Under the pieces are notes generated by a model. That model was not told the origin of the DNA and did not search any database. It saw nothing but the letters and a program-made list of their open reading frames with translations. A DNA stretch of 58,127 bases from a virus (taxonomy: Duplodnaviria; Caudoviricetes): IMG/VR virus record IMGVR_UViG_3300025676_000021, positions 1 through 58,127 of that record. One strand, 5' to 3'. Position 1 is the stretch's first letter; every line of letters starts with the position of its first letter. Shown one piece after another: positions 18,179 to 53,491 of the stretch. A program made the translations under genes and the position numbers.

Positions 18179-19162
18179 ATGGCTACTGGATGGGGTAAGA
18201 AAACATGGGGTGCAGAATCTTGGGGAGACCTAAGCGATACCTCCGTTAACCTTAGTAGCCTATCATTAACAACATCAATTGGAACTGAAACAACATCTGC
18301 AAACGCTATTGTTTCAGTTTCAGGTATACAATTAACTTCTACTATTGTATCAGCAACAGCAGGGACTTCTGCTTTAGTTTTAGCTACTGGAAATTTAGAG
18401 TCTATGGCTGTTGGAAGTGTTTCAACACCTATTGGACAAGATGTTGCTGTATCTGGTTCACAATTAACTTCTACTTCAGGAACTGCAACAGTAGATGACA
18501 CAACTTTGACAGGAGAAGGTTGGGGTAGAGGTGAATGGGGAGAGTTTGCTTGGGGTGATAATTTTTCAGTTCAATTAACTGGTCTACAGGCTTCAGCAAC
18601 TTTTGGTAGTGATGTTACTGCATTTACAGATGTTACCGCTTCAGTTACAGGACAACAATTAACTGCTTCTTTCTCTCATCCATCTTTTTCAATTCAAATT
18701 GACCAAGATATATTTGTATTAGCTTCGGAAGATCAATTAGATGCGTTAACTACATCCTCTACAGTAACAGCAGATGCCAATGTAAGTGTAACAGGTATTC
18801 AAGCTACAATGTCTATAGGAACTGCTGTAGGTGGTCTTAAAACTCCAGTAGATGTTACAGGTATCCAAGCTACTATGACTTTGGGTTCTATAACCCTAAT
18901 TCAATCAACTAATGAATCGGTTACCGGACAACAGTTAACAATGGCTCTTGGACAGCACGCAGATATACCAGGTCAAATTATAGGTGTAGGAGGGTTACAA
19001 TTAACAAGCTCTATAGGATCTGTAACAGCAGAGGGTGCTGCAAACATTGATGTTACAGGCATACAATTGACAGCTTCTGTTGGAAGCCTTAATATAACAG
19101 CATGGGCAGAAGTAGATCCAGACGTAAGTAATACTTGGCGAGAGGTTGATCGAGCTGCTTAA
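18179..19162 (+). CDS. Repetitive virion fibre protein
   Basis: WG-x3-WG-x3-WG modules (two copies) and about ten V(T/S)GxQxT...G repeats. Confidence 0.65.
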   Translation: MATGWGKKTWGAESWGDLSDTSVNLSSLSLTTSIGTETTSANAIVSVSGIQLTSTIVSATAGTSALVLATGNLESMAVGSVSTPIGQDVAVSGSQLTSTSGTATVDDTTLTGEGWGRGEWGEFAWGDNFSVQLTGLQASATFGSDVTAFTDVTASVTGQQLTASFSHPSFSIQIDQDIFVLASEDQLDALTTSSTVTADANVSVTGIQATMSIGTAVGGLKTPVDVTGIQATMTLGSITLIQSTNESVTGQQLTMALGQHADIPGQIIGVGGLQLTSSIGSVTAEGAANIDVTGIQLTASVGSLNITAWAEVDPDVSNTWREVDRAA

Positions 19163-19200
19163 ATAAGGTAAAATTATAATTATTTAGGAGATAAAAATTT

Positions 19201-20385
19201 ATGACATCTAGTTATTCTACAGATTTAAAACTCGAACTAATGGTGACTGGCGAAAACGCTGGTACATGGGGAGATTTAACAAATACAAACTTAAATGTAA
19301 TTCAACAAGCAATCGCTGGTTTCGAACAAGTAACCTTATCAAGTGGTGGTACACTAGCACTTGTGATGTCAGACGGTGCGTTGTCAAACGCAAGAAACAT
19401 GGTAATTAAATTTGCTACAGCTTCAATTGCTGCTAGCACAATTTGTACAATTCCAGATTCAATAGAAAAATTTTATATTTTTGATGCAACGGGTTTGACT
19501 AATCCAACTAACCTTACAATTAAAACTGCATCAGGTACTGGATTTACTTTAGACCAAGCAAAAATTTACGCAGCATATTCTGATGGTACAAATTTAAATG
19601 AAATTTCATTAGACTCTTTAGGTGGCACTGTTGCTGCTGCAAATATTTCGGGCACGATTGCAACTTCGCAAATTGCAGATGATGCTGTGACTTCAGCAAA
19701 AATTGCTGACGATGCAATTACATCTGCCCTTATAGCAGATGATGCTGTTGGTGCGGATCAACTTGCTAACACTGCAGTAACTGCAGCATCTTATACTACA
19801 GCTAACATAACTGTAGATGCACAGGGAAGACTTACTGCTGCATCTAGTGGAGCAGGCGGAGACGGAAGTTATGTTCCAAGATTAATTGCAAATGGACCTG
19901 CTTCAGGTAACTTAACTACACCAGGTAATGCATCAAAATTTTACGCTTACGTTTTTTCAGGTGGTGGAGGAGGTGGCTCACCATCCAATAGTAGATCAGC
20001 TGGCAGTGGAGGAGCGGGTGTTACTGGATTTTTTTCAGGAAATGCAGCAGCTTCCACAACTTATGCTTACTCCGTAGGAGGAGCAGGAGCAGGGGGAAAT
20101 AGAAATCCTGTACCCTCAGGACAGTATGGAAACCCTGGAAGTGCTGGTGGTGCCTCGTCAATTACTGGTTTAGTTCCTGCAGTAGCTGGTGGTAACGGAG
20201 GCCAAGGAGCACCGGATGCCCACGGACCGGCTATGTCCCCTGGAAACCCTGGTGCGGCAAATCCCGCAGCGGATTTTACATTACCGTTTGGTTATTTAGC
20301 TGGAAACTCTATTGCGAACGCTGGTGGTAACTCAGCCTCTGGTGGTGCGGGTCATATAACATTTTTTGATGATGGGGGTCAATAA
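19201..20385 (+). CDS. Tail fibre / receptor-binding protein
   Basis: LELMVTGENAGTWG N-terminus, IADDAVTSAK repeats, ITVDAQGRLTAAS knot, Gly-rich C-terminal domain. Confidence 0.8.
   Translation: MTSSYSTDLKLELMVTGENAGTWGDLTNTNLNVIQQAIAGFEQVTLSSGGTLALVMSDGALSNARNMVIKFATASIAASTICTIPDSIEKFYIFDATGLTNPTNLTIKTASGTGFTLDQAKIYAAYSDGTNLNEISLDSLGGTVAAANISGTIATSQIADDAVTSAKIADDAITSALIADDAVGADQLANTAVTAASYTTANITVDAQGRLTAASSGAGGDGSYVPRLIANGPASGNLTTPGNASKFYAYVFSGGGGGGSPSNSRSAGSGGAGVTGFFSGNAAASTTYAYSVGGAGAGGNRNPVPSGQYGNPGSAGGASSITGLVPAVAGGNGGQGAPDAHGPAMSPGNPGAANPAADFTLPFGYLAGNSIANAGGNSASGGAGHITFFDDGGQ
19672..19788 (+). repeat. 30-nt (10-aa) degenerate tandem repeats in tail fibre
   Basis: IADDAVTSAK IADDAITSAL IADDAVGADQ LANTAVTAA. 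Confidence 0.8.
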
Positions 20386-20828
20386 TGGCTTACGTAATTG
20401 AATTAAACAACGAAGTAGTTAATTTTGCAGAAAACGAAACACAGAAAAATGATTTAATTCATTTTTTTCCACCCGCTGTATCTCATGAAATAAGTGATGA
20501 AAATTTTACTAAAATTAAAAAAAATTTAGCAGTAGTATCTGTTTCTGGGGGAGTTATATCAATAACAGAAAACGCTCAATACGCTACTGATGAGTTTGCG
20601 CCTGACGAAACTTCATTAAAACAATATCATAACGTATTAAAGGGACTACTAAAAGTTTATTTAAATGCTCATAACACTAGCCATTCAATTTATTCTGACG
20701 CACAGAGTTATTATAATACTTTAAATACTTTAGATTATTCAACATTAACTTTTCCTTTTATCGGGACTTGGGAAAAATATTGTGAAGATAACTCAATAAC
20801 TTATATACATACTTTACAAATACCTTAA
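20385..20828 (+). CDS. Hypothetical protein, possible tail fibre chaperone
   Basis: TAATG-coupled to the fibre gene; acidic 147 aa. Confidence 0.45.
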   Translation: MAYVIELNNEVVNFAENETQKNDLIHFFPPAVSHEISDENFTKIKKNLAVVSVSGGVISITENAQYATDEFAPDETSLKQYHNVLKGLLKVYLNAHNTSHSIYSDAQSYYNTLNTLDYSTLTFPFIGTWEKYCEDNSITYIHTLQIP

Positions 20829-20847
20829 TTAGTATACAAAATACTTA

Positions 20848-21597
20848 ATGTTTGAAAACGTTATTAAATTTAAGGCGTGTAAAGAATATGTTGAAAACAA
20901 CAAAGATATTTTTCCTGTACCGACAAAAACTAATATTCCGGAGTGGTTTAAAAAATTAGAGCACTCGGCTACAAATCAAACAATTAAGGGATGTATACCC
21001 TTTTTAGAAACTCTAACTTCAGGCTATCTACTAAAGATGCCAATAGATTATCTAATAGAACATAATGTGGATTTTAAGGATAAAAAACAAGCTGGTTTTA
21101 TGACTGGAATTTATCCAGATAATAATTTATCTAATAAGATAAATATTAACTATACTGATAGACCATCTTCACATCCAATTAAGCAATTAGGGGGTAGTCC
21201 TTTAGTTGATAAAAATAAAAAACTTCCTTTTCATAAAATATTAAATCCTTGGCAAATAGAAACCCCTCCTGGGTATTCAACTCTTTTTGTACCTCCTTTA
21301 AATAATTCAGATGATAGATTTTCTATAATTCCAGGTATTGTAGATACTGATTCTTTTGTTAACACTCATGAAATTAATTTTCCAATCGTAATAAATGGGG
21401 ACAAATACGAAACACTATGTTCAACAATTAAAAGAGGTACTCCTTATGTTCAATTAATTCCTTTCAAAAGAGATGATTGGAAGATGAAAATAGAAAACAC
21501 CGAGGATAATAAAATAAGTGTGAATAAATTTTTTCAAGTTAAACATGTTGTTCATAATTATAAAAAAGTTTTTTGGCGAAAAAAATCATGGAAATAA
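20848..21597 (+). CDS. DUF6065-like protein
   Basis: IPEWFK, TIKGCIPF..SGY, PWQIETPPGYSTLF, GIVDTD, IKRGTPYVQLIPFKR; family name recalled. Confidence 0.55.
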   Translation: MFENVIKFKACKEYVENNKDIFPVPTKTNIPEWFKKLEHSATNQTIKGCIPFLETLTSGYLLKMPIDYLIEHNVDFKDKKQAGFMTGIYPDNNLSNKININYTDRPSSHPIKQLGGSPLVDKNKKLPFHKILNPWQIETPPGYSTLFVPPLNNSDDRFSIIPGIVDTDSFVNTHEINFPIVINGDKYETLCSTIKRGTPYVQLIPFKRDDWKMKIENTEDNKISVNKFFQVKHVVHNYKKVFWRKKSWK

Positions 21598-22181
21598 GAG
21601 AAAGTGTATCAAACTACATAGTAACATTTGATAATGTAGTTCCAAATAAAGTATTAAATAGTTTTTATAAGTATTGTAAATATAATACTGATTTTACCAA
21701 GGCACAAATTATTGGCGAAAAAAAAGATAGATCCTCTGAAATAATTAATGAAAACGTTAGAAATGTTAGTAGTTTAAGATTAGATAAATATACTAATAGT
21801 CTTACTCAAATACATTGGGCTAATTTACTTAATTTTACTTTCTCTTATTTTATAAAAGAATACCAAATTATTTTAAATATGAACAATATTAGTTTTAAAA
21901 TTACAAATATAGATCTTTTAAAATACCAAAAAGAGGGACATTACAGTTTTCATGTTGATGATTGTGAAGGTTATCATAGAACTTTTAGTTGTATTCTACT
22001 TATTAATGATGAGTATGAAGGTGGTGATTTATTTTTTAAAAATGTAGTAACAAAAGAAATAACTAAAATTAATAAAGTTAAAAACAGAATTATTATATGG
22101 CCAAGTAATTTTTTATTTCCACATAAAATTTCACCAGTAACAAAAGGAGAAAGGTTTTCGGTGGTAGCATGGGCAGTATAG
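21573..22181 (+). CDS. Prolyl 4-hydroxylase-like 2OG-Fe(II) oxygenase
   Basis: FHVD, SCILLINDEYEGG, WPSNFLFPH..PVTKGERFS; start may be 21588. Confidence 0.88.
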   Translation: MAKKIMEIRESVSNYIVTFDNVVPNKVLNSFYKYCKYNTDFTKAQIIGEKKDRSSEIINENVRNVSSLRLDKYTNSLTQIHWANLLNFTFSYFIKEYQIILNMNNISFKITNIDLLKYQKEGHYSFHVDDCEGYHRTFSCILLINDEYEGGDLFFKNVVTKEITKINKVKNRIIIWPSNFLFPHKISPVTKGERFSVVAWAV

Positions 22182-22976: not shown

Positions 22977-25130
22977 ATGCCTTTAACAAAAGTACAAATA
23001 GCACCCGGATTCAACAAACAAGTAACTGAAACAGGCGCAGAAGGTCAATGGACTGATGGCGACTTTGTGAGGTTTCGATATGGGCTACCTGAAAAAATAG
23101 GTGGTTGGGAACAGCTTGTTAACGCATCTTTAGTAGGTGCAGCAAGAGAACAATTTATTTGGGCTGATTTAGACGGCAGAAGATATGCTGCAATAGGTAC
23201 AAATAAAGTTTTAATAATTTATTACGAGAGTTCCTTTTATGATATTACACCACTAGGGACAGCTATAACTGGATGCACATTTGATACTGTAAATACTTCA
23301 GCAACAGTTACCGTCAATAAGGCCGCACACACACTTCAACCAGGAGATTTATTTACATTTACTTCAGTAACTCCTCCAACAGGAGCAGGTTACAGTGCAT
23401 CAGATTTTGAAACAAATACTTTTCAAGTGGTCACTGTTCCAAATAGTGATACATTCACTATTACAATGGCTAGCGCAGCAGGGACCACGGTCAACGGAAG
23501 TGGATCTGCAACAGTCAATCCGTACATTAGTGCAGGTGCTTTAGGGTTTACTTATGGATTTGGTTGGGGAACAGGATTGTGGGGCGGAGGCCAACAAGTA
23601 TTTGGAACTCTTAACGGAGCTTTACTAGATGATACCGCAGGTACTGGAGGATCTGGGACTTCCATTACACTTGCATCAACAACTGGATTTCCAACTTCTG
23701 GAACAATAAAGGTTGGCGCTGAATTTATTTCTTATACTGGTATATCTACGAATGATCTTACAGGGATTACTAGAGCAACTGGAGGCACTAGATCTGCTCA
23801 TGCGTCTGGATCTGGTGTTGAATACTACACTGGTTGGGGACAAGCTTCTTTATCTTCTACATTAACAATAGATGCTGCCTCATGGTCTTTAGATAATTTT
23901 GGAGAAAAATTAATTGCTACTATTAAAAACGGTAAAACTTTTGAATGGAATCCTATTAACTCTAACCCAAATGCATTGACCACAAGAGCAACGGTTGTAA
24001 GTGGTGCACCAACAGCATCTGTTATGTCTTTAGTTTCAGATAGAGATAGACATTTACTTATGCTTGGAACTGAAACCACTATTGGAAGTAGTGGTACTCA
24101 AGATAAAATGTTTATAAGATTTTCTGATCAAGAAGATATAAGTGATTATACACCAACTTCAGTAAACACTGCTGGTACTTTTAGAATAGATGCTGGTACT
24201 AAAATAGTAGGAGCAGTAAAAGGAAAAGATTATACTTTAGTGCTTACGGATAATTCAGCATATGTAATTCAATTTGTTGGTCCCCCTTTTACTTTTTCAA
24301 TTAGACAAGTAGGTTCTAACTGTGGAGCGATAGGTCAACACTCTATTAAATACGTTAATGGTGCTGTCTATTGGATGGGAGAGTCTGGCGGCCTCTTTGT
24401 TTATGATGGTACTGTTAAATCTTTACCATGCAAAGTTGAAGATTTTGTGTTTACAAATAAAGGGGACAATCTTGGTATTAATTATGCTAATGGTGAATCA
24501 GTATACGTAGGCTTAAATCATTTATATGAAGAGCTTACTTGGTTTTATCCTAAAGCTGGATCCGATTTTAATGATAGATGCGTAACGTATAATTACCAAA
24601 GCGGAACTTGGACAACAGGTTCTTTAGCAAGGACTACATGGATAGATGCAAATTTATACGATGTTCCTTATGCAACTGAATTCACTTCAACAACCACACC
24701 AACTTTTCCTTTAATTCAGGGAGTAACAAGCATAAATGGTGGAACTATTTACTACGCTCATGAAACAGGAATTAATCAAGTTGATACCGCTGGGAATAAA
24801 ACAGCGATACTTGCCTTTATTGAATCAGGTGACTTTAGTTTAAACGTTGAGGGTGATGCTCAAGTATTTATGAGTATGAAAAGATTTGTCCCTGATTTTA
24901 AATTAATTGAAGGTAATGCACAAATTACAATACAGTTAAGAGACTTTCCTAGCGACAGCCAAGCTTCTTCACCTCTAGGACCATTTACAGTAACCTCAAC
25001 CACTGATAAGGTAGACACAAGAGCTAGAGCAAGATTTGCTAGTTTAAAAATTGCAAATACATCTACCGATCAAAATTGGAGATTTGGAACTTTTAGAGCT
25101 GATGTACAACCCGATGGTATGAGAGGATAA
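22977..25130 (+). CDS. Tail nozzle / packaged-DNA stabilisation protein (P22 gp10-like)
   Basis: VRFRYGLPEKIGGW, WSLDNFGE, FIRFSDQE, propeller-like repeats, RFVPDF, WRFG..R.D.PDG.R C-terminus. Confidence 0.75.
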   Translation: MPLTKVQIAPGFNKQVTETGAEGQWTDGDFVRFRYGLPEKIGGWEQLVNASLVGAAREQFIWADLDGRRYAAIGTNKVLIIYYESSFYDITPLGTAITGCTFDTVNTSATVTVNKAAHTLQPGDLFTFTSVTPPTGAGYSASDFETNTFQVVTVPNSDTFTITMASAAGTTVNGSGSATVNPYISAGALGFTYGFGWGTGLWGGGQQVFGTLNGALLDDTAGTGGSGTSITLASTTGFPTSGTIKVGAEFISYTGISTNDLTGITRATGGTRSAHASGSGVEYYTGWGQASLSSTLTIDAASWSLDNFGEKLIATIKNGKTFEWNPINSNPNALTTRATVVSGAPTASVMSLVSDRDRHLLMLGTETTIGSSGTQDKMFIRFSDQEDISDYTPTSVNTAGTFRIDAGTKIVGAVKGKDYTLVLTDNSAYVIQFVGPPFTFSIRQVGSNCGAIGQHSIKYVNGAVYWMGESGGLFVYDGTVKSLPCKVEDFVFTNKGDNLGINYANGESVYVGLNHLYEELTWFYPKAGSDFNDRCVTYNYQSGTWTTGSLARTTWIDANLYDVPYATEFTSTTTPTFPLIQGVTSINGGTIYYAHETGINQVDTAGNKTAILAFIESGDFSLNVEGDAQVFMSMKRFVPDFKLIEGNAQITIQLRDFPSDSQASSPLGPFTVTSTTDKVDTRARARFASLKIANTSTDQNWRFGTFRADVQPDGMRG

Positions 25131-26550: not shown

Positions 26551-27143
26551 TGATTAATATAATTGACGGTTTTTATGAACCTAACCATTTAGGATTAATA
26601 GTTTTAAATTTTGTAAATCTACATTTTGAAAGCAAACACCAACCTTTTGAAAGATACTTTGGTGGTGATAGAAAATTAGGCTATCCAGTTTACGAGACAG
26701 CTAAACTAGTTAAAGGTGGGGATTTAGCTCCCTATAATATATTTGCAGAAACATGGGAAAAAAAGTCTAAAATAAAACCCTTATATATAAATACATTTTT
26801 TAGAAAAACTAAATTATCTGAACTCAAAGAGTCACCTTCATGGAAGCAATATAAACCACATTGTGATCAAGAATATTTTGATATAGCTGGTTTATTATAT
26901 TTCAATTCATCCTTTCTTAAAGATGGAACTTATATTTTTAATGCTAAGCATGATTATGAACCAACTGTGATTGTGGGTTCAAAATATAATAGATGTGTTT
27001 GGTATAATCCTTCACTTCCTCACTCACCAACTATGGAACAAAAAGTAGAAGAAAGGTGGGTCCAACCTTTTTTTATAATACATAAGGAAGAAACATTAAA
27101 AAAATATCTAAACGAAGTAGGTATTAAAAAATATGAATCCTAG
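26550..27143 (+). CDS. 2OG-Fe(II) oxygenase-like protein
   Basis: IIDGFY, PHCD, AGLLYFN..GT, KYNRCVWY..PHS, ERWVQ. Confidence 0.7.
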   Translation: MINIIDGFYEPNHLGLIVLNFVNLHFESKHQPFERYFGGDRKLGYPVYETAKLVKGGDLAPYNIFAETWEKKSKIKPLYINTFFRKTKLSELKESPSWKQYKPHCDQEYFDIAGLLYFNSSFLKDGTYIFNAKHDYEPTVIVGSKYNRCVWYNPSLPHSPTMEQKVEERWVQPFFIIHKEETLKKYLNEVGIKKYES

Positions 27144-28068
27144 AGGCGCAACCGAAATACAAATGGAGATGCTGAATAAGTATGTCTCAAAGGATTTATT
27201 AGATCAAGTACAGATTTGTACTTCTATTCCTGGTAAAGTTCCCTTAGCTCCGGATAAACTTAATATTCTCTGGCAAAAAAATTCTTGGGACCAACCTAAC
27301 CTACAAAAGTTTTTTACCAATAAATCAAGAAATAAAGAATATGATTGGTACGTATTCAATAGTCATTGGAATTATGAGAAGTTTAGATATGCTTTCGATA
27401 TACCCACAGAAAAATCTGTAGTAATAAAAAATGGTATAGACAGTTTTCCAATTAGGAAGATATATAAAAGAGGAACTCCTATAAAATTAATACATCACTG
27501 CACTCCTTGGAGAGGTTTAAATGTTTTATTGCGTGCAATGCAAGAAGTTGAAAACCCTAATATAATGTTAGATGTGTACAGTTCTTGTAAAGTATATGGA
27601 TCTGAGTTTTCAGACACTACAGAAAAAGATTTTGAAGAGTTGTATGAACAAGCTAAACAATTACCTAACGTTAATTATATTGGTTACAAACCACATGAAT
27701 ATATAAAAGAAATGATGCCTAATTATGATATGTTTGTATACCCATCTATATTTGAAGAAACATCTTGTGCATCAGCACTAGAAGCTTTAGCATCAGGAGT
27801 ACATGTAATCACTAATAATTTTGGAGCTTTGTATGAAACTTGTGCAGAGTGGCCCGTATACATTAATTACTCAAAAAATTACGAACAGATGGCGGAGGAT
27901 ACAGGAGCAGCTATTAATGTAGCAGCATCTTATTTACATGAAAATTTTATGCAAGAACATCTGCAAGAACAACAAAACTTTTACAAAAGATTTTATAGCT
28001 GGGAAAAAAAGGGTATAGAGTGGACAAACTTTTTGAAAGGAGCTTTAAATGAAAGAAACAGTAAATGA
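27133..28068 (+). CDS. Glycosyltransferase, GT-B fold (GT4-like)
   Basis: PRGATE, TPWRGL, YPSIFEETSCASALEALASG (E-x7-E) motif. Confidence 0.88.
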   Translation: MNPRGATEIQMEMLNKYVSKDLLDQVQICTSIPGKVPLAPDKLNILWQKNSWDQPNLQKFFTNKSRNKEYDWYVFNSHWNYEKFRYAFDIPTEKSVVIKNGIDSFPIRKIYKRGTPIKLIHHCTPWRGLNVLLRAMQEVENPNIMLDVYSSCKVYGSEFSDTTEKDFEELYEQAKQLPNVNYIGYKPHEYIKEMMPNYDMFVYPSIFEETSCASALEALASGVHVITNNFGALYETCAEWPVYINYSKNYEQMAEDTGAAINVAASYLHENFMQEHLQEQQNFYKRFYSWEKKGIEWTNFLKGALNERNSK

Positions 28069-28930
28069 AGACACTTACCAAACTTTAAAAGAAGTTGCGG
28101 TAACATCATACGAAAAAGCAACTCTTCCTATGTGGAAACCGGACACCGGACAAAAAGAAGAAAAGAAAATAACTAAGTCACCCTATAACATTATGATTTG
28201 TACACCTTGCCATAGTGATGTGACTATGCATTACACGCAAGCTCTTTTAGAATTACAACAACTTTGTATTAAAAAAGGAATAAGAATAACATTTACTTTG
28301 TTAAAATCCTCTTTGGTGACTCAAGGAAGAAATTTATGTGTTTCAGCTTTTTTAGATTCTAATTGTACACATATGTTATTTGTAGATTCAGACATATATT
28401 TTAGAGCAGAATCTATTATTAAAATGTTAGATCTAGACAAAGAATTAATATCTATTCCTTACCCACTTAAAACTATGATGTGGGATAAACTTTATAAAAA
28501 GTGGAATGATGGTGAAGTTAAAAACGCTGGAGATATACATAGATGGTTAAATACATACCCAATGAAAGTAGCAGATGTTAATAACATAACTTTAGATAGT
28601 GGTGTTATGGAAGTTACACATAGTCCTACAGGATGTATGCTAATTAAAAGAGCAGTGTTTGACAAGATGATAAAAAAATATCCAGATAAAAACATAGTTC
28701 AAAAGACAGTTATAAATGGTGAGTATGTAGATAGACCTCATTTATGGAACTTTTTTGATTGTATACATGACCCTGAGACTAAGACATATTTAGGTGAAGA
28801 TTTTTCTTTTTGTAAGCTTTGGAAAGATATCGGGGGTAAATGTTATGTCTTTGTTAATGACCCAATCATCCATGTAGGCGAACATCAGTACGAAGGATGT
28901 TTTAGAGACGAGTTGAAACTAGCCGACTAA
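28049..28930 (+). CDS. Glycosyltransferase, GT-A fold
   Basis: ICTPC, SLVTQGRN, HMLFVDSD (DxD), TGCMLIKR, GEDFSFC, HVG. Confidence 0.8.
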   Translation: MKETVNEDTYQTLKEVAVTSYEKATLPMWKPDTGQKEEKKITKSPYNIMICTPCHSDVTMHYTQALLELQQLCIKKGIRITFTLLKSSLVTQGRNLCVSAFLDSNCTHMLFVDSDIYFRAESIIKMLDLDKELISIPYPLKTMMWDKLYKKWNDGEVKNAGDIHRWLNTYPMKVADVNNITLDSGVMEVTHSPTGCMLIKRAVFDKMIKKYPDKNIVQKTVINGEYVDRPHLWNFFDCIHDPETKTYLGEDFSFCKLWKDIGGKCYVFVNDPIIHVGEHQYEGCFRDELKLAD

Positions 28931-28978: not shown

Positions 28979-29998
28979 ATGTTACAATTTTTACCCTACG
29001 CATTAGCAGCCTACGGAGGTTATAAAGGATACAAGGGCGCCAAAGATTCAGGTGCTTCTGGATTACAAAGAATACTTGGAGGTGCCTTAGGTGCTTACAG
29101 TGGTTACAATTTAGGACAAGTAGGTGGTTTTGCAAAGGGTGCTGGGTTTGGAAACGCAGCTTCAGCTAATTTTGTACCTACCTTTAGTAGCCTTCCTGGA
29201 GTAAGTGGCCTGCCTGGAATGGGTGGTGCTCAAGATCCTAGTACTATGTCTAAATTCTTAGGTGTAGACAGAGACGGAAGTATGATTCCAAATCCAAATT
29301 ATATTGAACAAGGAACTAGTGGTGGAAATCTTTTAGATATTTTGAAAAGACAAAAAGCTGATGGAACAGGAATGGAATACAGCCCAGGAAAAGTTTCAGC
29401 TGCAATTGCTGCAGGAACTTATTTAAGTGGTGCGTTTGATCCACAACCAACAGATGTTTATATGCCTGGATACAATATGAATTATTTAAACATGAAAGAA
29501 AAGAGACCTCAATATACATACATAGACCCGGACACCGGACAAGAAAAAGCATACGAAAAAATTTATTCTCCTGAAGAAGCAGGACGAGGTGATCCAAGAA
29601 TGGGTCCTTACTCAGTAAATGTTCAAAGATTTAATACCGGAGGACTATCAAGTATTCAAAAATTTAATGAAGGTGGTATTAACTATCTTCCATCAAAAGT
29701 TTCACATGACGAAAATGATGCTAACAACTATGTTAGAGCATCCGGTTATGTAGAGGACGGAGAAGGCGTAGGAGACAAAGACGAGGATACAATGTTAGCT
29801 CAATTAGCAGACGGAGAGTTTGTAACAAGAGCAGATGGAGTATTAGGTGCTGGAATCATAGCTGGAGGAAATCCAAATAGTATGAAAGATATGAGAGAAA
29901 AAGGTGCCCAATATTTCTATGAACAACAAAAAAGATACAAGCGTGTATTTGATTTATTACAGGATAGAAATGGCAACAGCAAACAAAAAACAAATTAA
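28979..29998 (+). CDS. Internal virion protein with tape-measure-like FxxGG...D..LADGEFV domain
   Basis: Gly/Ala-rich hydrophobic N-terminus; FNTGG, FNEGG, DTMLAQLADGEFVTRADGV. Confidence 0.6.
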   Translation: MLQFLPYALAAYGGYKGYKGAKDSGASGLQRILGGALGAYSGYNLGQVGGFAKGAGFGNAASANFVPTFSSLPGVSGLPGMGGAQDPSTMSKFLGVDRDGSMIPNPNYIEQGTSGGNLLDILKRQKADGTGMEYSPGKVSAAIAAGTYLSGAFDPQPTDVYMPGYNMNYLNMKEKRPQYTYIDPDTGQEKAYEKIYSPEEAGRGDPRMGPYSVNVQRFNTGGLSSIQKFNEGGINYLPSKVSHDENDANNYVRASGYVEDGEGVGDKDEDTMLAQLADGEFVTRADGVLGAGIIAGGNPNSMKDMREKGAQYFYEQQKRYKRVFDLLQDRNGNSKQKTN

Positions 29999-36500: not shown

Positions 36501-36715
36501 ACGAAGCTATGGTTGATGCTGAAGAAGCGCCAGTTGAAGCAGAAGAAAAGTCTATGATTATGGCTGACCTACAACTTGAAGATCCAGTAGCTCAAGCGCC
36601 TACAGCACCAGTACCACCGGCTACCGGACAAGTAGATGCTAATCAATTTCAAGCACTATTTCCTAATGATCCAACAGGAGCTGCAATAGCACAAAGAGGA
36701 GTTAGACGTGGCTAG
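33542..36715 (+). CDS. Large internal virion / ejection protein
   Basis: 1057 aa; helical with Gly/Ala hydrophobic segments; ends FQALFPNDPTGAAI; last gene of virion module. Confidence 0.6.
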   Translation: MASLKDIQNQLDNNTFDPSKYSRQERDLIDAAIKKGLITGPSMSELQSQRAGAAKDVATIDEAVKNPIGVRLQQTGSSLDGRSEAVLAGDLIGSITPYVAMRKKIFSAAKSKVPGDKSTGLFARTKMFSNFSDKLTARLPGRFKLLGGLTKLLAKVADPTIGRVLASPLGRAEVYSVLGGTAGAGAGSVTYDMLNETVGVAAMDAIASDMENMSPQEVKTDMFANAADSMFTALAWNAGAATLTPFITKGLGKVGRLMIGAKSKNAKELVNIARERGGLPIPMVMTAQEGTGLLGGFASKFFKVLGIMPFINGIGKEALQGAEQAAGKNYLNNDVLKYGPLVKTGMLSATVWKQAEQAFIQNSNLINSSYKAFDTLADTIGNPKVIPTSHVKFMAKNYTDELFMKFPGLRSYAEDAGGRIDMKALEKLQGTGDPLALFFRHMNQIEDFVTPKQYKGMMEELNRAIGQTGYENIRPTLWSIREALENDLNSFGSAITKETFLKDDTVKAAYETLKKTNPAAAEADMALKISESEKLKDKLYGANDTFSTLMNFYQNANLTRVFRDYNATTFTNKALAGIGGMQKKKAQRFFNDLANDVFTRGDTDAVLQFKQLLGASKIASRKDKTKGIGITKGGGEALFNASKARWMFNSFIKSFDSASSPAGRSMLDEIMEESTVRAGINGTVDVMESMVQKGTGIDQTLDFSINKVKTGTNIFDATKIKFSPKDTSSFNINKFMRNLGISDITDDVAKEKMTTILGGPAQAKQFEKFLTYMKAISDTPIADTSTFMQRRLQLGGLNSFTGALVLGGSAAVNPFAPALFILLGRRAGQILSDPVAMRAFNDALNPDEQIKLLMGQKVGNGVPGVLGIGRRYFKGRDIQTAANVLKSPGVVGRLGLTQKREAFARLVNYLNESDADVPRVDPKTVTPEEITERMGQLEASVPSPNYNQETLPKNNFEVMFAQDYSGSSGNLETDTNAVAMLTTATQNEAMVDAEEAPVEAEEKSMIMADLQLEDPVAQAPTAPVPPATGQVDANQFQALFPNDPTGAAIAQRGVRRG

Positions 36716-41972: not shown

Positions 41973-43542
41973 AATATTTGGCCCACCTGGTACAGGTAAA
42001 ACAGAAAACTTACTCAAAAGAGTTAAGAGGTATCTTGAAAAAGGTTACTCTCCAGACGAAATTTGTTACGTATCATTTACTAACAAAGCTGTAGATGAAT
42101 GTGTTGCAAGGGTTAGACAAAAGTTTAAAGGTTATGATGAAGATGCTTTCTCATATTTTAGAACACTACATTCTTTGGCCAGACAACAGTTTGCTGAAAT
42201 TCCCGTATTAGACCCAAAGGCAGACCTGCTGATGTTTCATACACAATATGGCACTGTCAAGGTAGGTTACAAAGACACTTGGGATGATCAAAAAGTATAT
42301 AATAATTGGTCGCTTCAAATATATGACAGGGCAAGAAACATGAAGGTAGACCCTGTGTGGTTGTACAAACAACAACCAAGAAAAGTGGTAAGACTTCAAC
42401 AGTTTAAATCAATCATCGCAGGTTACGAAGAATTTAAAACATTGGAAATGGAGAACGGACACCGGACACCGGATAGATTAGATTTTACAGATATGGTGCA
42501 GAAGTTTATTGATGATGGTCTTGTGGTACCTTTTAAAGTTTTAATGGTAGATGAAGCTCAGGATTTAACACCTTTACAATGGGACATGGTGGTTAAAATG
42601 GCTGAAGTAGTAGAGAGAGTTTATATTGCAGGTGACGATGACCAAGCTATTTATGAATGGAATGGCGCTGATGTTAATTTGTTTCAAACCTTTCCAGGTA
42701 AATCATTAGTATTAAAAAGAAGTGTAAGATTAAATAAAGACATACATTTTTTTTCTAAGGGTTTATTAAATTCTATGGGTAATAATCGTATACCTAAAGA
42801 GTTTTATTCTAATGGTAAAGAGGGCTGTATTTACAGATGGAATGGATTGAAGAAAGTTCCTTGGACTATGGAAGGAAGTTGGATGGTATTGGCTAGGATT
42901 AATGATGTAAAAAGAGAACTCCAACAGGAGGCAAGGAACCTTGGTTTATATTATCAGGACCAAAAAAATAATAAATCATTTGACCCTAATCAGTTTTCTG
43001 CAATTAATTATTGGGAGAAAATTTGTGAGGGTGGTAGCATCACTAGAGAAGAAGCTGTAACAATGTATGAGTATTTATTAAACATAGATCACGGATACCG
43101 GTCAGCGGAAAGTAAAAAATGGAGTTTTGCACATCCAAATCAAGTCTTTACATTTGATGAATTACATTTAAGGTGTGGTATGAGAGATCAAAAAGGTCTA
43201 TGGAATCAAGTATTTAAGAGAAAATTTAAAGATAAAGATAAACAATATTTTAAAAAACTTATGAACGAAGGTGTTGATCTATCACAACCACCGAAAATAA
43301 TTATAGATACAATACACCAGGTTAAAGGTGGTGAAGCAGATAATGTTGTCCTGGCGAGCAAATGTAACTTTCCATCACACTTTGATAAAAAAAATTTAGC
43401 AGATAAAGTAAAAGAACTTAGAGTTTGGTATACAGGTGCCACCAGATCTAAAAGCACACTCCATCTGTTGGGCACTTACCATCAATATAATTTTCCATTA
43501 GGAAAATATTATAAACAATATGAGGCTAACTATGTCAGATAA
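41929..43542 (+). CDS. UvrD/Rep-family (SF1) helicase
   Basis: GPPGTGKT, SFTNKA, TLHS, VDEAQD, GDDDQAIY, TIHQVKGGE, YTGATR. Confidence 0.92.
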   Translation: MSNLLKQKLRGKTIKIFGPPGTGKTENLLKRVKRYLEKGYSPDEICYVSFTNKAVDECVARVRQKFKGYDEDAFSYFRTLHSLARQQFAEIPVLDPKADLLMFHTQYGTVKVGYKDTWDDQKVYNNWSLQIYDRARNMKVDPVWLYKQQPRKVVRLQQFKSIIAGYEEFKTLEMENGHRTPDRLDFTDMVQKFIDDGLVVPFKVLMVDEAQDLTPLQWDMVVKMAEVVERVYIAGDDDQAIYEWNGADVNLFQTFPGKSLVLKRSVRLNKDIHFFSKGLLNSMGNNRIPKEFYSNGKEGCIYRWNGLKKVPWTMEGSWMVLARINDVKRELQQEARNLGLYYQDQKNNKSFDPNQFSAINYWEKICEGGSITREEAVTMYEYLLNIDHGYRSAESKKWSFAHPNQVFTFDELHLRCGMRDQKGLWNQVFKRKFKDKDKQYFKKLMNEGVDLSQPPKIIIDTIHQVKGGEADNVVLASKCNFPSHFDKKNLADKVKELRVWYTGATRSKSTLHLLGTYHQYNFPLGKYYKQYEANYVR

Positions 43543-46087: not shown

Positions 46088-46573
46088 TTAAATTTCAACT
46101 GAACTGTTAAATGAAATTATTATCTTATCTTTTTCGTAAATATTTTTTTTAGATTCATGTTTATAAAATCCTGGAAAAGTAATTAAATGACCTTCACCTG
46201 AAGTAAATTTTTGATTCTCAATACTTGTCGTAGAGTCTGGTCCTGGTAATTGTAAATAAAAAACATTTGTAAAATTAGTTTTTGCATGAGTGTGTAATTG
46301 ATGAAAATTATTTTTTTTATAAATTTGATACCAACTGTGATCACATTGAAATTGTGTGGCTTTGTAATATTCTAAAAACCATTTAGAAAATTCTTTTAAA
46401 ACTTGTTCTTTAAATAATTCAAACCATTCACCTTTGGCTTTAGAAAAATAGTCTGTCTTATAAATATTTTCGAAAGGTTTGCCGAGGTCGTCATTATAAA
46501 TTAACCCAATAAGTTCTTTATTAAATTTTTTAAAATTTTTAATATTATATGAAGTAATATAATTTTGAGACAT
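46088..46573 (-). CDS. Putative 2OG-Fe(II) oxygenase (HxH type)
   Basis: WYQIY..NFHQLHTH..FTNVFYL, ITFPGFYKHES, KIIISFN. Confidence 0.75.
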   Translation of the reverse strand: MSQNYITSYNIKNFKKFNKELIGLIYNDDLGKPFENIYKTDYFSKAKGEWFELFKEQVLKEFSKWFLEYYKATQFQCDHSWYQIYKKNNFHQLHTHAKTNFTNVFYLQLPGPDSTTSIENQKFTSGEGHLITFPGFYKHESKKNIYEKDKIIISFNSSVEI

Positions 46574-47949: not shown

Positions 47950-48738
47950 ATGAACAAAGCGATACATAATAAATTTTTTGAAACTACTGATTACAGTAAA
48001 TTCAAAAAGACTAGAGGTAACCGACCTGTAGATGAAGCACACGTGCAACAACTTAAAAAGTTGATTGAAGAAAAAGATTTATACGATCCAATTCGTGTAA
48101 ATAAAAATATGGAAGTCATTGATGGCCAACATACATTAGAAGCTAGAAAACAATTAGATCTTAAGATTCCATTTATTATTATGGACTCTGATGATCCATT
48201 GGATGTGGCTAGACTAAACACAGGTCGTAAGAACTGGTCTATGGAAAATTATTTAGATCAACACTGTGCAAGAAATAAAATGGACTACCGTATTTGTAGA
48301 AACAAAATGCAACAATACGGAATTAATGTTGCAGAGATGGTGGTGCTTTTGTTAAAGCAAACTTCCTTGTGGACAAGAATCAGTAATGATTTTAAAACAG
48401 GACGATTTGTAATTCCTGCAGGAGGTATTGAACATACTGATCGTATTGGATCACAATTAATGCAACTTAAAAAATATTTCTATGGTATGGAATCCACAAA
48501 GAATAAAAGATTCAAACGTTCCATGGTGGTGTCTTATATTGTTGCTGACAAACATCCTAAATTTGATCCTAAAAGATTTAAAACTGCTTGTAAGAGTAAA
48601 TCTTCATGGTTTTTAACGGGTACGTCTACTGCTGATTATATTGCGATTATTGAACGTATCTATAACGCAGGGTTGGTACATAGAAATAAAATAAATTTAG
48701 TTGAGTTTTATAAAACTAAAGAGTATCAAGAGAAATAG
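47950..48738 (+). CDS. ParB/Srx N-terminal domain protein
   Basis: GNRPVD..HV..L, PIRVN...VIDGQH.LEA, LNT..KNW; AGGAGG RBS. Confidence 0.8.
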   Translation: MNKAIHNKFFETTDYSKFKKTRGNRPVDEAHVQQLKKLIEEKDLYDPIRVNKNMEVIDGQHTLEARKQLDLKIPFIIMDSDDPLDVARLNTGRKNWSMENYLDQHCARNKMDYRICRNKMQQYGINVAEMVVLLLKQTSLWTRISNDFKTGRFVIPAGGIEHTDRIGSQLMQLKKYFYGMESTKNKRFKRSMVVSYIVADKHPKFDPKRFKTACKSKSSWFLTGTSTADYIAIIERIYNAGLVHRNKINLVEFYKTKEYQEK

Positions 48739-48746: not shown

Positions 48747-48956
48747 ATGGACGTAAACAAATGGAAATCAATTGCTGTTGATATCGAATCATACACAATT
48801 ATTAGGGCTATGGGGGAGAATGGCCTTAGAAACCCAGGCAACATGATAAAAAAAATGGTTAGTGATTCTATTAAAAAGATAGCTAAGAAAGAAAATGTTG
48901 CTGAACCTAAGATGAAAGAAAATTTATTGAATCAAGGAAAGAAACTCTTGAAGTAA
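48747..48956 (+). CDS. Small putative DNA-binding protein (ribbon-helix-helix-like)
   Basis: KWKSIAV strand followed by two helices; AGGAG RBS. Confidence 0.45.
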   Translation: MDVNKWKSIAVDIESYTIIRAMGENGLRNPGNMIKKMVSDSIKKIAKKENVAEPKMKENLLNQGKKLLK

Positions 48957-49017: not shown

Positions 49018-49019
49018 AT

Positions 49020-49444: not shown

Positions 49445-49684
49445 GTGGTTATGCAAATGGATACTACTCAAAAAAGATTAATTAAAGAATCTATAATACT
49501 GATGGAAATTATGTCTGGTGAACACCGGATGGATTATCTTGGACGTATGTGGCATTTGTATTTCAAAGTGTACGAGAAGAGATCTATTAGGGTTTCAAGA
49601 AATAAAAAATCTAAAACGTTTTTAATGGATAAGAAGAAAGCCTATGACTTGTGCTCCGAGCTTACTAAAATATTTGGGCATTAA
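49445..49684 (+). CDS. Hypothetical protein
   Basis: About 75-79 aa; start uncertain. Confidence 0.5.
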   Translation: MVMQMDTTQKRLIKESIILMEIMSGEHRMDYLGRMWHLYFKVYEKRSIRVSRNKKSKTFLMDKKKAYDLCSELTKIFGH

Positions 49685-50069: not shown

Positions 50070-50217
50070 TCATGGGGGACGAATGAATCTAACTCCTGGG
50101 GGGAAAAACCAGAGAGCAATTAATGTTAAACCCCCCGAAGTCATTAACCAAAGTTTATAAGTGTTAAATAACACAGGTCAACTGTAACATAATACCGGCC
50201 ACCGGGCAAATGTAAAA

Positions 50218-50453
50218 TTTCTACTATATAGATTATCTAGAGTGATTGAAAAAGAAAAGTGCTCAGGGGGTAAAAGAGGTGTATCTGGTGTATCTAATGT
50301 TCTATTAATCAATTGTATCAATGGTTTTAATCAATTTTAGTGGTGTATCTATGGTGTATCTATGGTGTATCTTGGATACACCACTCTTGCTGGAACGCAA
50401 ACAGTTGATTGTAGGGTTGTAGTCATTACTCTGAAATATCTATATAGTAGAAA
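50218..50453. repeat. Iteron-like array flanked by 16-bp inverted repeat (candidate origin or packaging site)
   Basis: GGTGTATCT at 50278, 50287, 50342, 50353, 50364; inverted GATACACC at 50375; TTTCTACTATATAGAT (50218) / ATCTATATAGTAGAAA (50438). Confidence 0.75.
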
Positions 50454-50456
50454 ATT

Positions 50457-50924: not shown

Positions 50925-51141
50925 AAGATTTAAAGCTTTAGGAATGTTGGGTTCTCATTTGTTTACTACTGGTAAAAACTATTTTAAAGCTGGTGGGAAA
51001 AAAACTAAAGATATTATGAGAGAATCAAGCGTATCTAGAGATACAGCTAAAGCTGATATAAAATGGGAGATTAAGAGAAAAGCCTTTCCAAGAGGTGGTA
51101 AAAAACCATCTGATTTTTATAACAAACCTAAAGGAAGATAA
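50917..51141 (+). CDS. Basic hypothetical protein
   Basis: GGAGG RBS; TAATG-coupled to terS. Confidence 0.6.
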   Translation: MYKRFKALGMLGSHLFTTGKNYFKAGGKKTKDIMRESSVSRDTAKADIKWEIKRKAFPRGGKKPSDFYNKPKGR

Positions 51142-51671: not shown

Positions 51672-51754
51672 TTGGACTGAATGGTTAGATGCTTTTAACC
51701 AAGTACATAACTCCACCATCACCACTTCAATTGGTAAAATTAAGGTAGAGATTG

Positions 51755-52078: not shown

Positions 52079-52093
52079 ATAACTTACTCAATC

Positions 52094-52501
52094 ATGTCTA
52101 ATAAAAACGGGGAATCTAGACTATGGCAAAAGGTAAAAAAAGGACTTACTGATTGCTTCTTAACGCGCATAGAATCCAGTACAATCAACGGTATTCCAGA
52201 TATTCACGCAGTCATGGGCAATGAAGTTTTTTGGATGGAATTAAAATCAGATTCATTAAGTTATCCGAAGCTTAATAAGTGGCAAGTTGTTTGGATCAAT
52301 AAATATATAATGGCTGGTGGTAAAGTTATTATCTTGGATGAGACACTCTTGCAGAAGTCTCTTAAACTCTACAGACCGGTGTCCGTTTTCACTGATCCTC
52401 GTTCCCTCGTGCCGTTTGCCTCGTTCTCGTTCCCGTTACAATGGCCACTGGTCCAGCGCAGGATGCTGCAGGAGCTGGGACGGCAGCCTGATGCAGCGTG
52501 A
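52094..52501 (+). CDS. Holliday junction resolvase / VRR-NUC-like nuclease
   Basis: E..LW, RIES...GIPD, FWMELK, Q..W PD-(D/E)XK pattern. Confidence 0.75.
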   Translation: MSNKNGESRLWQKVKKGLTDCFLTRIESSTINGIPDIHAVMGNEVFWMELKSDSLSYPKLNKWQVVWINKYIMAGGKVIILDETLLQKSLKLYRPVSVFTDPRSLVPFASFSFPLQWPLVQRRMLQELGRQPDAA

Positions 52502-52731
52502 TCCTCGTTCTCGTGCCCTGGCCACTGATCTTTTCCCTCTTTGTTTGATCAGTGGCCTGGGGACCAGCAGCAGGTGGTACAGCTCAGGTCTCGTTTCTCG
52601 TTGACAAACCTCGCTCGTTCTCGTTAAACTTAACTACACTGGTCCCGCCAGAGCAGCTGGTACGCATCCTTCAGGATCCAGGTGAAGCTCTCGTTTCTCG
52701 TTCTCGGTAATGGATAAACCTCGTTCTCGTT
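52398..52731 (+). repeat. Strand-biased CTCGTT short-repeat array
   Basis: About 12 CTCGTT copies (counted by eye) plus CTCG variants, often as tandem pairs, all on the + strand. Confidence 0.8.
52516..52561. ncRNA. Candidate hairpin sRNA with anti-Shine-Dalgarno loop
   Basis: GGCCACTGATC/GATCAGTGGCC perfect 11-bp stem; loop TTTTCCCTCTTTGTTT complementary to phage early RBSs. Confidence 0.45.
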
Positions 52732-52804
52732 TACTGGCCAACGGTGACGTCCCTGCAGGGTGAGCTTCAGGGGGGTGCAGACTGGAATCAGGAGAAACTT
52801 TTGC

Positions 52805-52833
52805 TTGACGAGTATCCCATGATGTCGTATGGT
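52805..52833 (+). promoter_or_regulatory. Early sigma70 promoter with TATCCCAT box
   Basis: TTGACG-17 nt (AGTATCCCATGATGTCG)-TATGGT. Confidence 0.65.
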
Positions 52834-52856
52834 CAGACTAAACAAAGGATGAAAAG

Positions 52857-53015
52857 ATGTTTCGAAAGATAAGATCAAATAATTTAGATAAAATAAATAG
52901 ACTTCAATCAATGAAGACCTATCCTATAGGAGCAAGGGGTAAAAGAGATGTTCGTATAAATAAATTAATAAATAAATTATATAATAGAAAGGAAGGATAT
53001 GGCAATAGATTTTGA
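52857..53015 (+). CDS. Basic early microprotein (52 aa, not in ORF track)
   Basis: MFRKIRSNNLDKINRLQSMKTYPIGARGKRDVRINKLINKLYNRKEGYGNRF; AAAGGA RBS; first ORF after promoter. Confidence 0.5.
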   Translation: MFRKIRSNNLDKINRLQSMKTYPIGARGKRDVRINKLINKLYNRKEGYGNRF

Positions 53016-53193
53016 TGCCCTCGATCTCGTTCGAGGAGAGAACAAAGCTCGTTTATATAACACTAAGTTAGACGGACTCCAGCAGCAGGTGACTGAGCTC
53101 ACCAAGCTGGTAACCGATGTGGTAAAAGAACTTCCAAAGGAAAAGGTATGGTCGTTTGAAGAAAGATTAAAAAAAATAAAAGAAAGGGGTTGA
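52999..53193 (+). CDS. Early hypothetical protein
   Basis: AGGAAGGA RBS; coiled coil. Confidence 0.6.
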   Translation: MAIDFDALDLVRGENKARLYNTKLDGLQQQVTELTKLVTDVVKELPKEKVWSFEERLKKIKERG

Positions 53194-53218
53194 CAGGTAT
53201 CCCATCGTGTCTTATATA
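53190..53218 (+). promoter_or_regulatory. Early sigma70 promoter with TATCCCAT box
   Basis: TTGACA-17 nt (GGTATCCCATCGTGTCT)-TATATA. Confidence 0.75.
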
Positions 53219-53224
53219 TACATC

Positions 53225-53286
53225 GCACCTTCAGGTGAGACTGTTATGCCATGGCCGCGCAAGTGTCTTGTTCCACCTGATGGTGT
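53225..53286 (+). other. Long 5'-leader stem-loop
   Basis: GCACC-T-TCAGGTG pairs with CACCTGA-T-GGTGT; inner AGAC/GTCT; starts at the predicted transcription start and ends just before the RBS. Confidence 0.55.
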
Positions 53287-53305
53287 TTAACCAAAGGAGA
53301 ACTAC

Positions 53306-53491
53306 ATGATAAGTAAAAAACTAATACAGCAGATGAACAATTATTATGATCAAGAGTATATCAAAGATGAGTCAAAGCCCAAGGAAGACAAACCTGAAGA
53401 AGGCAAAGTATACGCACTGACCGGTGACCGGGGCACGCGCTGCATTGCAAACGGTAACACGTGGAAAGACTCGGAGGTGAAGGATGACTGA
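53306..53491 (+). CDS. Early hypothetical protein
   Basis: AAGGAG RBS; 61 aa. Confidence 0.6.
   Translation: MISKKLIQQMNNYYDQEYIKDESKPKEDKPEEGKVYALTGDRGTRCIANGNTWKDSEVKDD

Follow-up and report, generated by a model that had tools for sequence, protein, structure and literature searches.

The window analysed in this study, the complete IMG/VR virus record IMGVR_UViG_3300025676_000021 (58,127 bases, estimated completeness 95%), is the genome of a HTVC023P-type pelagiphage, and it carries about 12 dispersed sites of a tandem heptad motif, each built of 2–4 head-to-tail 7-bp units that start with CGG and follow the consensus 5′-CGG NN A CCGG R CA A-3′. The enrichment of this motif survives codon-preserving randomization, synonymous and intergenic positions of the motif are conserved, and new sites were independently gained in relatives. 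These results supported the proposal of a first-pass annotation of this DNA that the motif is a DNA-level signal written over genes. From the combined analysis, we consider it quite possible that a phage-encoded protein that recognises adjacent heptads, with a specificity that differs by clade, binds at these scattered sites.

In the window, CGGNNANCGG had 13 matches, 11 on the + strand and 2 on the − strand, compared with a mean of 0.36 and a maximum of 3 in 100 dinucleotide shuffles, confirming that the copies are far above chance. Similarly, CGGNNNNCGG had 20 matches vs 1.03 expected, and CCGGNNNCCGG had 6 vs 0.01. To guard against post hoc selection of the motif, an unbiased scan was performed in which self-pairs of every 3- and 4-mer were counted for spacings of up to 24. 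Among the spacings that are not a multiple of 3, CCGG at spacing 7 was the top signal, with 6 pairs vs 0.038 expected; the pairs that the 47 CCGG sites of the window form within 40 bp have spacing 7 (six times) or spacing 15 (once), and no other spacing occurs.

The count against codon-shuffled genomes that the first-pass annotation had recommended was made with three codon-preserving nulls of 400 shuffles each, namely synonymous shuffling within each gene, synonymous shuffling genome-wide, and codon permutation. The enrichment persisted, as the null means of CGGNNANCGG on the + strand were 1.26–1.47, a value that includes 1.0 from the intergenic site, which was left unshuffled, and in each null 0 of the 400 shuffles reached the 11 observed. 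With 1000 synonymous shuffles, CGGNNACCGG was observed 9 times vs 1.21 expected on the + strand and twice vs 0.21 on the − strand, and 0 of 1000 shuffles reached the observed enrichment. Since the codon-preserving shuffles remove the motif, codon choice at the sites is constrained, and it is the nucleotide sequence that carries the signal. A peptide-level cause was considered, as x-T/N-G appears in the translation of five sites and PDTGQ in that of two, and was rejected, because protein-preserving synonymous shuffles abolish the motif and one conserved site is non-coding.

The anatomy of the element was then defined from one representative of each of 16 + strand locus clusters of the motif-rich genomes, giving the consensus A-[C/A]-CGG-N-N-A-CCGG-A-C-A-A. 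The window has 8 + strand copies of the heptamer CCGGACA and no − strand copy, and 7 of the 8 sit in tandem pairs, so the enriched thing is the pair and not the lone unit. The register is strictly 7 bp: in 160 loci of relatives, CCGGNNNCCGG has 96 copies, vs 0 for the version with a 2-nt spacer and 1 for that with a 4-nt spacer. Eleven of the 12 loci lie within open reading frames (ORFs), 91–3076 nt past the start codon, and their position bears no relation to gene starts. CGG begins at the second position of a codon in 7 loci and at the third in 3 loci; the sites had been said to lie in different frames, and more than one is indeed used, but only two of the three. The 12 loci of the window are the following.

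1817..1830, + strand: decayed pair CCGGCTA CCGAACA in the portal gene; the orthologue in the sister-clade genome G007 has a perfect CCGGCTACCGGACAA.
11990..11999, + strand: weak pair CGGCTGA CGG in gene 11797-12354, with no ACCGG centre, in a region covered by no relatives.
18918..18931, + strand: full 14-mer CGGTTACCGGACAA (CGGTTA-CCGGACA) in gene 18179-19162; lineage-specific.
23488..23497, + strand: pair CGGTCAA CGG in the virion structural gene 22977-25130.
28139..28153, + strand: CCGGACA CCGGACA A in gene 28049-28930, encoding the peptide PDTGQ; conserved.
29528..29542, + strand: CCGGACA CCGGACA A in gene 28979-29998, a 15-mer identical to that at 28139.
36617..36631, + strand: CCGGCTA CCGGACA A, close to the end of the 1057-amino-acid gene 33542-36715; conserved.
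42456..42476, + strand: triple CGGACA CCGGACA CCGGATA in the UvrD-like helicase gene.
43092..43112, + strand: triple CGGATA CCGGTCA GCGGAAA in the UvrD-like helicase gene; the best-conserved coding site.
50195..50209, + strand: CCGGCCA CCGGGCA A, intergenic, with the GGTGTATCT iterons following about 80 bp further downstream.
52376..52386, − strand: CGGACACCGGT, the only purely − strand site, inside the + strand gene 52094-52501.
53421..53431, no strand: palindromic CCGGTGACCGG in the small ORF 53306-53491; window-specific.

All positions named by the first-pass annotation were found to hold the sequences it gave, while its list lacked the two − strand matches (52376 and 53421) and the + strand site 11990, and its near-copy at 1818 is actually the decayed site at 1817. 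Only the two loci in the helicase gene (42456 and 43092) have three units in the window; the others have two.

Conservation of the sites was evaluated in 160 loci of relatives (1.50 Mb) obtained via two motif-bearing genes, and in 75 further loci obtained via a ParB-like gene. In these 160 loci, CGGNNANCGG occurs 322 times on the + strand and 5 times on the − strand. As the loci were obtained via genes that hold conserved sites, a comparison of motif density with divergence is biased, and whole records and polymerase-centred loci were relied on for it instead. Some sites are under purifying selection at synonymous and non-coding positions, as seen in 54–94 relatives. At 43092, identity in 80 relatives is 0.98 or higher at each of the five motif-critical third codon positions, while the N positions are at 0.60, 0.16, and 0.22 and the third-position mean of the gene is 0.73. 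At 28139, identity at the motif-critical third positions is 0.99 and 1.00 (80 relatives), a level matched by only 10% of the third positions of that gene, and at 36617 all five are at 0.89–1.00 (18 relatives), with identity dropping to 0.10 directly downstream. The third positions in or abutting the − strand site 52376 (52375, 52378, 52381, and 52384) are 0.94–0.96 identical in 54 relatives, and 25% of the third positions of the gene reach 0.95. In the intergenic site 50195 (60 relatives), CGG is conserved at 0.95–0.98, A at 1.00, and CCGG at 0.97–1.00, vs 0.35 and 0.50 at the N positions, and the flanks have substitutions and indels. A fixed core with free spacers, seen at 50195 and in the helicase gene, is the pattern expected of a protein-contacted repeat. 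A 10-of-12 match to a sigma-70-like promoter on the − strand spans the site at 50195; this candidate was rejected, as its hexamers are not conserved in the relatives.

The synonymous-site conservation that had been called for as a check was thus present at 28139, 36617, 43092, and 52376 and lacking at 18918, 23488, 29528, and 53421, which most relatives do not have, for the most part owing to synonymous changes. In detail, site 18918 is absent from all 8 aligned relatives through synonymous differences; site 23488 is retained in 17 of 35 relatives, with third-codon-position conservation no higher than background; site 29528 is found in only 2 of 49 close relatives, yet also in the sister-clade genome G006; and at 53421 (23 relatives) the spacer A is at 0.00 and the second CCGG at 0.26–0.65. 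Site 29528 is either old with frequent loss or was swapped by recombination; a run of about 28 nt (29528-29555) is identical to that at position 33547 of G006, in a gene only 57% identical as protein. Relatives also bear sites where the window has none (window-equivalent positions 25281, 31401, 44780, 42449, and 50175), so that new sites arise independently in relatives. The site set looks part fixed and part transient.

At 42456, the relatives carry 2–4 units, and CGG-N4-CGG is often kept where CCGG became ACGG or GCGG. A CCGG-NNN-CCGG hairpin as the functional unit was rejected, because the relatives preserve CGG-N4-CGG after the complementarity is gone; the constant feature is thus a direct 7-nt repeat of CGG and not a hairpin.

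The young and unconserved copies, and the two sites with an identical 15-mer (28139 and 29528), would fit an origin without function, in which the motif is a by-product of sequence-biased mutation or short-patch conversion in the lineage. This origin is highly improbable, as conservation is restricted to the motif-defining bases across 54–94 relatives, the two identical 15-mers have unrelated flanking sequences, and a sister clade has a parallel motif with another core.

The first-pass annotation had assigned a single polarity to the sites, because all have A at spacer position 3. That A is built into the definition of the pattern and is therefore not independent evidence of polarity. Under synonymous shuffling, the null for CGGNNACCGG is strand-symmetric (0.21 coding copies expected per strand), while the observed loci are 7 on the + strand only, 1 on the − strand only, and 1 palindromic (one-sided binomial, about 0.035). 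With the extended consensus, all nine loci of the long structural and replication operons are on the + strand, and the TerS–TerL region has one + strand, one − strand, and one palindromic site. The strand bias is real, but modest and not absolute; a single polarity was an overstatement in view of the conserved − strand site 52376 and of the HTVC023P-clade motif described below, which has 185 + strand and 97 − strand copies.

The strand bias bears on the main rival of a duplex-binding protein, in which an oligomeric protein would read CGG triplets spaced by 4 nt on a single strand, either of mRNA or of DNA (the non-template or the lagging strand), and would affect elongation, termination, or mRNA fate. 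RfaH is known to read ops on the non-template strand. The nine long-operon loci are all in sense orientation, and what stays constant is a triplet at a 7-nt period in 2–4 copies and not a palindrome, both consistent with such a reader. A precedent is HutP, described as binding three XAG triplets with 4-nt spacers on hut mRNA (PMC2425495). Similar to the HutP sites, the phage sites have a triplet plus a 4-nt spacer, giving a 7-nt period, with free spacers and up to three repeats (the window triples 42456 and 43092). However, HutP acts at the RNA level, at one terminator with two sets of three triplets, while the phage has no HutP homologue, has mostly two units per site, and has conserved sites in antisense (52376) and intergenic (50195) position; further, the HTVC023P-clade counterpart is only 2:1 strand-biased. 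No HutP, TRAP, or NusG-like family was found among the 85 ORFs searched with Pfam, and no Rfam family and no tRNA were found in the window. We therefore regard a single-strand or RNA reader as rather unlikely.

T7-type promoters of a phage RNA polymerase are not supported, since no RNA polymerase family was found in the 85 window ORFs (Pfam) or in the 52 ORFs scanned against PHROGs, and the sites are unrelated to gene starts.

The distribution of the motif was then compared among phages and hosts. Counts of CGGNNNNCGG in the whole genomes of cultured relatives were close to the control pattern, with 3 + strand and 3 − strand matches in HTVC023P, 2 and 0 in 023Pt_psg01, and 1 and 0 in HTVC027P. 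Enrichment was not seen in the more distant uncultured records G001, G002, G003, and G005, nor in 67 polymerase-centred loci of two other clades (0.55–0.88 loci per 10 kb vs 1.3–1.6 for the control). In contrast, a sister clade whose replication proteins are 81–88% identical to those of the window was enriched: G006 has 4 + strand and 3 − strand matches vs 0 and 0 for the control, and 25 kb of G007 contain five loci, among them perfect forms of the window sites 1817, 43092, and 50195. The CGG enrichment is limited to the clade of the window and this one sister clade.

The host was assumed to be SAR11, as for the cultured HTVC023P-type phages. In 149 of 151 Pelagibacteraceae genomes, CGGNNACCGG occurs 0–3 times per strand, which is not above the control, as compared with 11 copies in the 58 kb of the phage; for the two outliers (7 + strand and 9 − strand copies, and 3 and 7), the control counts were equal or higher. 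Compared with these 151 genomes, the phage has a motif density about 100-fold higher. A host genome-wide motif of the Chi, KOPS, or uptake-signal type, of which Chi/KOPS-like sites had been among the functions first proposed, was therefore rejected for the Pelagibacteraceae, and the motif is the phage's own.

A polar signal private to the phage could still act in a Chi-like way, so that the terminase, or the UvrD-like helicase and Cas4-like nuclease encoded by the phage, would spare or pause on phage DNA, host DNA being without the signal. Both the helicase and the Cas4-like PD-(D/E)XK nuclease are phage-encoded, they are 82–87% identical in the motif-sharing sister clade and 30–53% identical in motif-poor genomes, and the density difference and the strand bias agree with such a signal. 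Chi and KOPS are contiguous 5–8-mers found genome-wide in hosts. They resemble the phage motif in being over-represented, strand-biased, and within coding sequence, while the phage motif is tandem, with free spacers and variable unit number, and is not enriched in the 151 Pelagibacteraceae genomes. One conserved site (52376) is also inverted. A recombination-junction hotspot was rejected, as the change of identity at 7 testable sites was no different from that at 665 control positions (Mann-Whitney p = 0.84; three further sites had too few relatives), so no excess of mosaic junctions accompanies the sites. With these results, a Chi-like role is decidedly unlikely.

Priming and nicking are two further enzymatic explanations. 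The AEP primase-polymerase, which had also been proposed to use the sites for priming, is 81–84% identical in the motif-sharing sister clade vs 25–36% in motif-poor genomes, and the sites are strand-biased. However, known primase recognition sites are trinucleotides, 12 sites in 58 kb are sparse for lagging-strand priming, and some copies are freely lost; priming sites are highly improbable. The virion DNA of T5, tf, and phiKMV has site-specific single-strand interruptions, and about a dozen sites dispersed regardless of genes, mostly on one strand, clade-specific, and absent from the host would suit a phage nickase that produces such interruptions. To our knowledge, a variable number of tandem units is not a feature of known nick consensus sequences, and one conserved site lies on the opposite strand; nickase sites are very unlikely.

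A short GC-rich motif that is hyper-abundant within genes and under selection also recalls HIP1 of cyanobacteria (GCGATCGC), which is described as maintained by selection, with an unresolved function (PMC5861425). Unlike HIP1, which is a single palindromic octamer found about once per gene in cellular genomes, the phage motif is a tandem heptad with about 12 copies.

Tandem heptads with other cores were found in related clades. In the unbiased scan, HTVC023P has CACG at spacing 7 at six separate + strand places vs 0.065 expected, the one signal in the other genomes scanned that was as strong as that of the window, and CACG-N3-CACG has 9 matches there (7 on the + strand and 2 on the − strand, one triple included) vs 0.13 expected. 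These lie at 1468, 9649, 11604, 14890, 14957 (− strand), 16301 (− strand), 18241, and 49643-49660 of HTVC023P (L169), and six of the eight loci fall in 9.6–18.3 kb, around TerS and TerL. Sites 14890 (+ strand) and 14957 (− strand) flank an intergenic 12-bp stem-loop. Relatives of HTVC023P, sampled as 80 loci (0.96 Mb), have 185 + strand and 97 − strand copies of CACGNNNCACG vs 9 and 2 for the control, and alignments showed that the CACG cores are fixed and the spacers free. HTVC027P (W03) has localised GCTTGNN heptad arrays at 16507-17737, adjoining the terminase genes, and DSL-LC04 (W04) has CGGNCCA heptad arrays at 14568-14619 and 50997-51020, the first of which adjoins the terminase genes; the arrays of both phages comprise 3–7 tandem heptads. 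In the G001-type clade, a conserved CCGGCCACCGGCCAC, which is a GGCCAC heptad pair, lies in the DNA polymerase gene (L283:11705 and orthologues), and the clade is otherwise unenriched. Judged from these sequences, tandem heptads look like a family trait in which the core varies by clade, and the clade of the window has spread its version genome-wide. In HTVC027P, AGAG at spacing 7 was also found at nine + strand loci vs 1.8 expected, a weak signal.

The closest known counterpart of a protein that reads adjacent heptads is omega (ParB-pSM) of pSM19035, a ribbon-helix-helix (RHH) protein described as binding contiguous 7-bp units cooperatively (PMC9499535). Like the omega heptads as described there, the phage sites consist of gapless 7-bp units, variable in number, for which direct orientation is possible (PMC9499535), and they have at least two contiguous units at a spacing of exactly 7. 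Unlike the omega arrays, which have 7–10 units, at least 4 of them needed for ParA activation, and stand at a few promoters or a centromere, the phage sites have 2–4 units at about 12 dispersed places, 11 of them in ORFs. The core is different, the phage has no ParA, and the RHH fold of the candidate reader below is unconfirmed.

Two gene products of the window are candidates for the reader.

48747..48956, + strand: basic protein of 69 amino acids with an RHH-like sequence pattern, directly downstream of the ParB-like gene and present family-wide; the candidate reader.
47950..48738, + strand: ParB-like protein with a DGQHT motif (phrog_12305, E 7e-25); a weaker candidate reader.

The N-terminal segment of ORF 48747-48956 differs by clade, being S[IC]AVDIES in the CGG-motif clades, SVAVKKET in the G001 type, and SVAIKRTD in the HTVC023P orthologue, gp13. 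Its language-model neighbours include the RHH_1, ParG, and RHH_5 clusters at 0.90–0.91, and the RHH-like pattern was judged by eye. These two features suggest that the ORF encodes an RHH protein, which is a lead and not a finding. However, the AlphaFold2 monomer model is all-helical, with three helices (pLDDT 77, moderate).

The ParB-like gene was present in all three motif-rich genomes (window, G006, and G007) and absent from all five motif-poor genomes, in which neither it nor a group of small ORFs at 45.8–55.3 kb had a tblastn match; all 67 loci from two motif-poor clades lacked it as well. The sites could accordingly be the loading or binding sites of this protein, as had been proposed for a ParB-like protein at first. 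Dispersed sites of ParB-family proteins, some of them intragenic, are known in the Noc NBS, the N15 SopB centromeres, and the KorB operators, which are palindromes of 13–16 bp. As in these systems, a dozen or more scattered sites, some in genes, would serve one protein, whose gene co-occurs with the CGG motif; however, the co-occurrence may stem from a single evolutionary event, and the phage site is an asymmetric direct repeat and not a palindromic parS of about 16 bp. The protein matches only a PHROG and no Pfam, NCBIfam, or PADLOC family, and the ParA, CbiA, and AAA_31 families were absent from the 85 ORFs scanned against Pfam. Further, the gene is absent from HTVC023P and its clade, which carry CACG heptads, and the G001-type clade keeps CCGGCCACCGGCCAC without it. 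Since HTVC023P has the CACG counterpart without the gene, the ParB-like protein is not the general reader, and ParB loading sites have little likelihood; what stood of the proposal is the co-occurrence of the gene with the CGG motif.

Several results weigh against a duplex-binding heptad reader. The RHH-like candidate found no confirmation in fold prediction or PDB searches: ORF 48747-48956 had no significant PDB match (best Foldseek E 1.4; Arc only in the profile search, E 1.2), Pfam gave nothing for it, and among all 85 window ORFs Pfam detected neither a helix-turn-helix nor an RHH family. Most sites are intragenic and far from promoters, unlike known heptad operators, and a duplex-binding protein alone predicts no strand bias, as opposed to the 7 + strand vs 1 − strand loci observed. 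In close relatives, the coding sites 18918, 23488, and 29528 are free to drift, and 53421 is also unconserved, so not every copy is needed.

In the mechanism that we prefer, a phage-encoded sequence-specific DNA-binding protein would bind cooperatively to neighbouring heptads, in the mode of RHH proteins such as omega on its contiguous 7-bp repeats, and its specificity would diverge between clades jointly with its sites. In favour of this mechanism are, besides the strict register and the fixed cores with free spacers, the variable number of units, the conserved site in opposite orientation (52376), and the presence of the CACG motif on both strands. Given a density about 100 times that of host genomes and the spread of the sites over all modules, the protein may, as a weaker inference, mark or organise the whole phage DNA rather than one promoter. 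Its possible roles include transcription timing, compaction or packaging, and discrimination of phage from host DNA, and the mostly sense orientation in the long operons may be the orientation tolerated by transcription. A bolder version, which we consider unlikely as a whole, is a private heptad code: dispersed tandem 7-bp sites, virtually absent from SAR11 chromosomes, would be read by a co-evolving phage protein, whose specificity was reset between clades (CGG/CCGG vs CACG), and would mark phage DNA for protection, replication, or packaging by its sequence and not by base modification.

In a genome of about 58 kb with near-unidirectional transcription and no RNA polymerase of its own, the motif bears on how the genome is organised or regulated. 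A signal that overrides codon choice, turns over among close relatives, and changes its core by clade points to an unrecognised DNA–protein recognition system, which is directly testable, since HTVC023P, with its CACG version, is in culture on HTCC1062. HTVC023P-type phages have been described among the most abundant pelagiphages. A narrow, non-exhaustive search met no account of such motifs in the parts consulted of the mSystems 2022 paper on the HTVC023P-type group or of the literature on over-represented, strand-biased phage motifs. The heptad motifs are usable as a lineage marker for metagenomic contigs, and they call for caution in codon-usage and selection analyses of these phages.

As to gene content, Pelagibacter phage HTVC023P was the sole near-DNA match of the window among cultured phages (73.5% identity across 742 bases), and the large terminase shares 70% identity with its HTVC023P counterpart and 59–62% with those of 023Pt_psg01, HTVC027P, and DSL-LC04. 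Almost all genes of the window are on the + strand, with the SNF2 helicase gene on the − strand. The structural genes encode the portal, the major head protein, and tail and ejection proteins; the replication and DNA genes encode the Cas4-like PD-(D/E)XK nuclease, the SNF2 helicase, the AEP primase-polymerase, the UvrD-like helicase, and a family A DNA polymerase; and the ParB-like protein, TerS, and TerL are encoded as well.

Two other repeat families were observed near the heptad sites. The GGTGTATCT iterons at 50278-50390 lie in the intergenic region upstream of ORF 50457, on the downstream side of heptad site 50195 and about 80 bp away from it. Of their six copies, five are direct, two with a period of 9 bp and three with a period of 11 bp, and one is inverted. 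Tandem hexamers of CTCGTT (CCTCGTTCTCGTT and variants), unrelated to the heptads, occur at 52395-54710 in at least 8 places, all on the + strand, within the GC-rich (0.44) TerS–TerL stretch, and CTCG at spacing 6 forms 8 pairs in the window vs 0.045 expected. These arrays are shared by G007, G001, and G002 and were not found in HTVC023P, HTVC027P, and 023Pt_psg01; the stretch may be a pac, origin, or regulatory region.

The window further encodes five ORFs with 2-oxoglutarate-Fe(II) oxygenase domains (in 5661-6140, 10483-11674, 21573-22181, and, on the − strand, 46088-46573), a class I methyltransferase-like ORF (6137-6712), and a glycosyltransferase (27133-28068). The Cpn10-like ORF 6893-7342 is 52% identical to a GroES-like gene on a 23-kb contig (L350) of a Pelagibacter metagenome-assembled genome, and this contig may be phage DNA that was binned together with the host genome.

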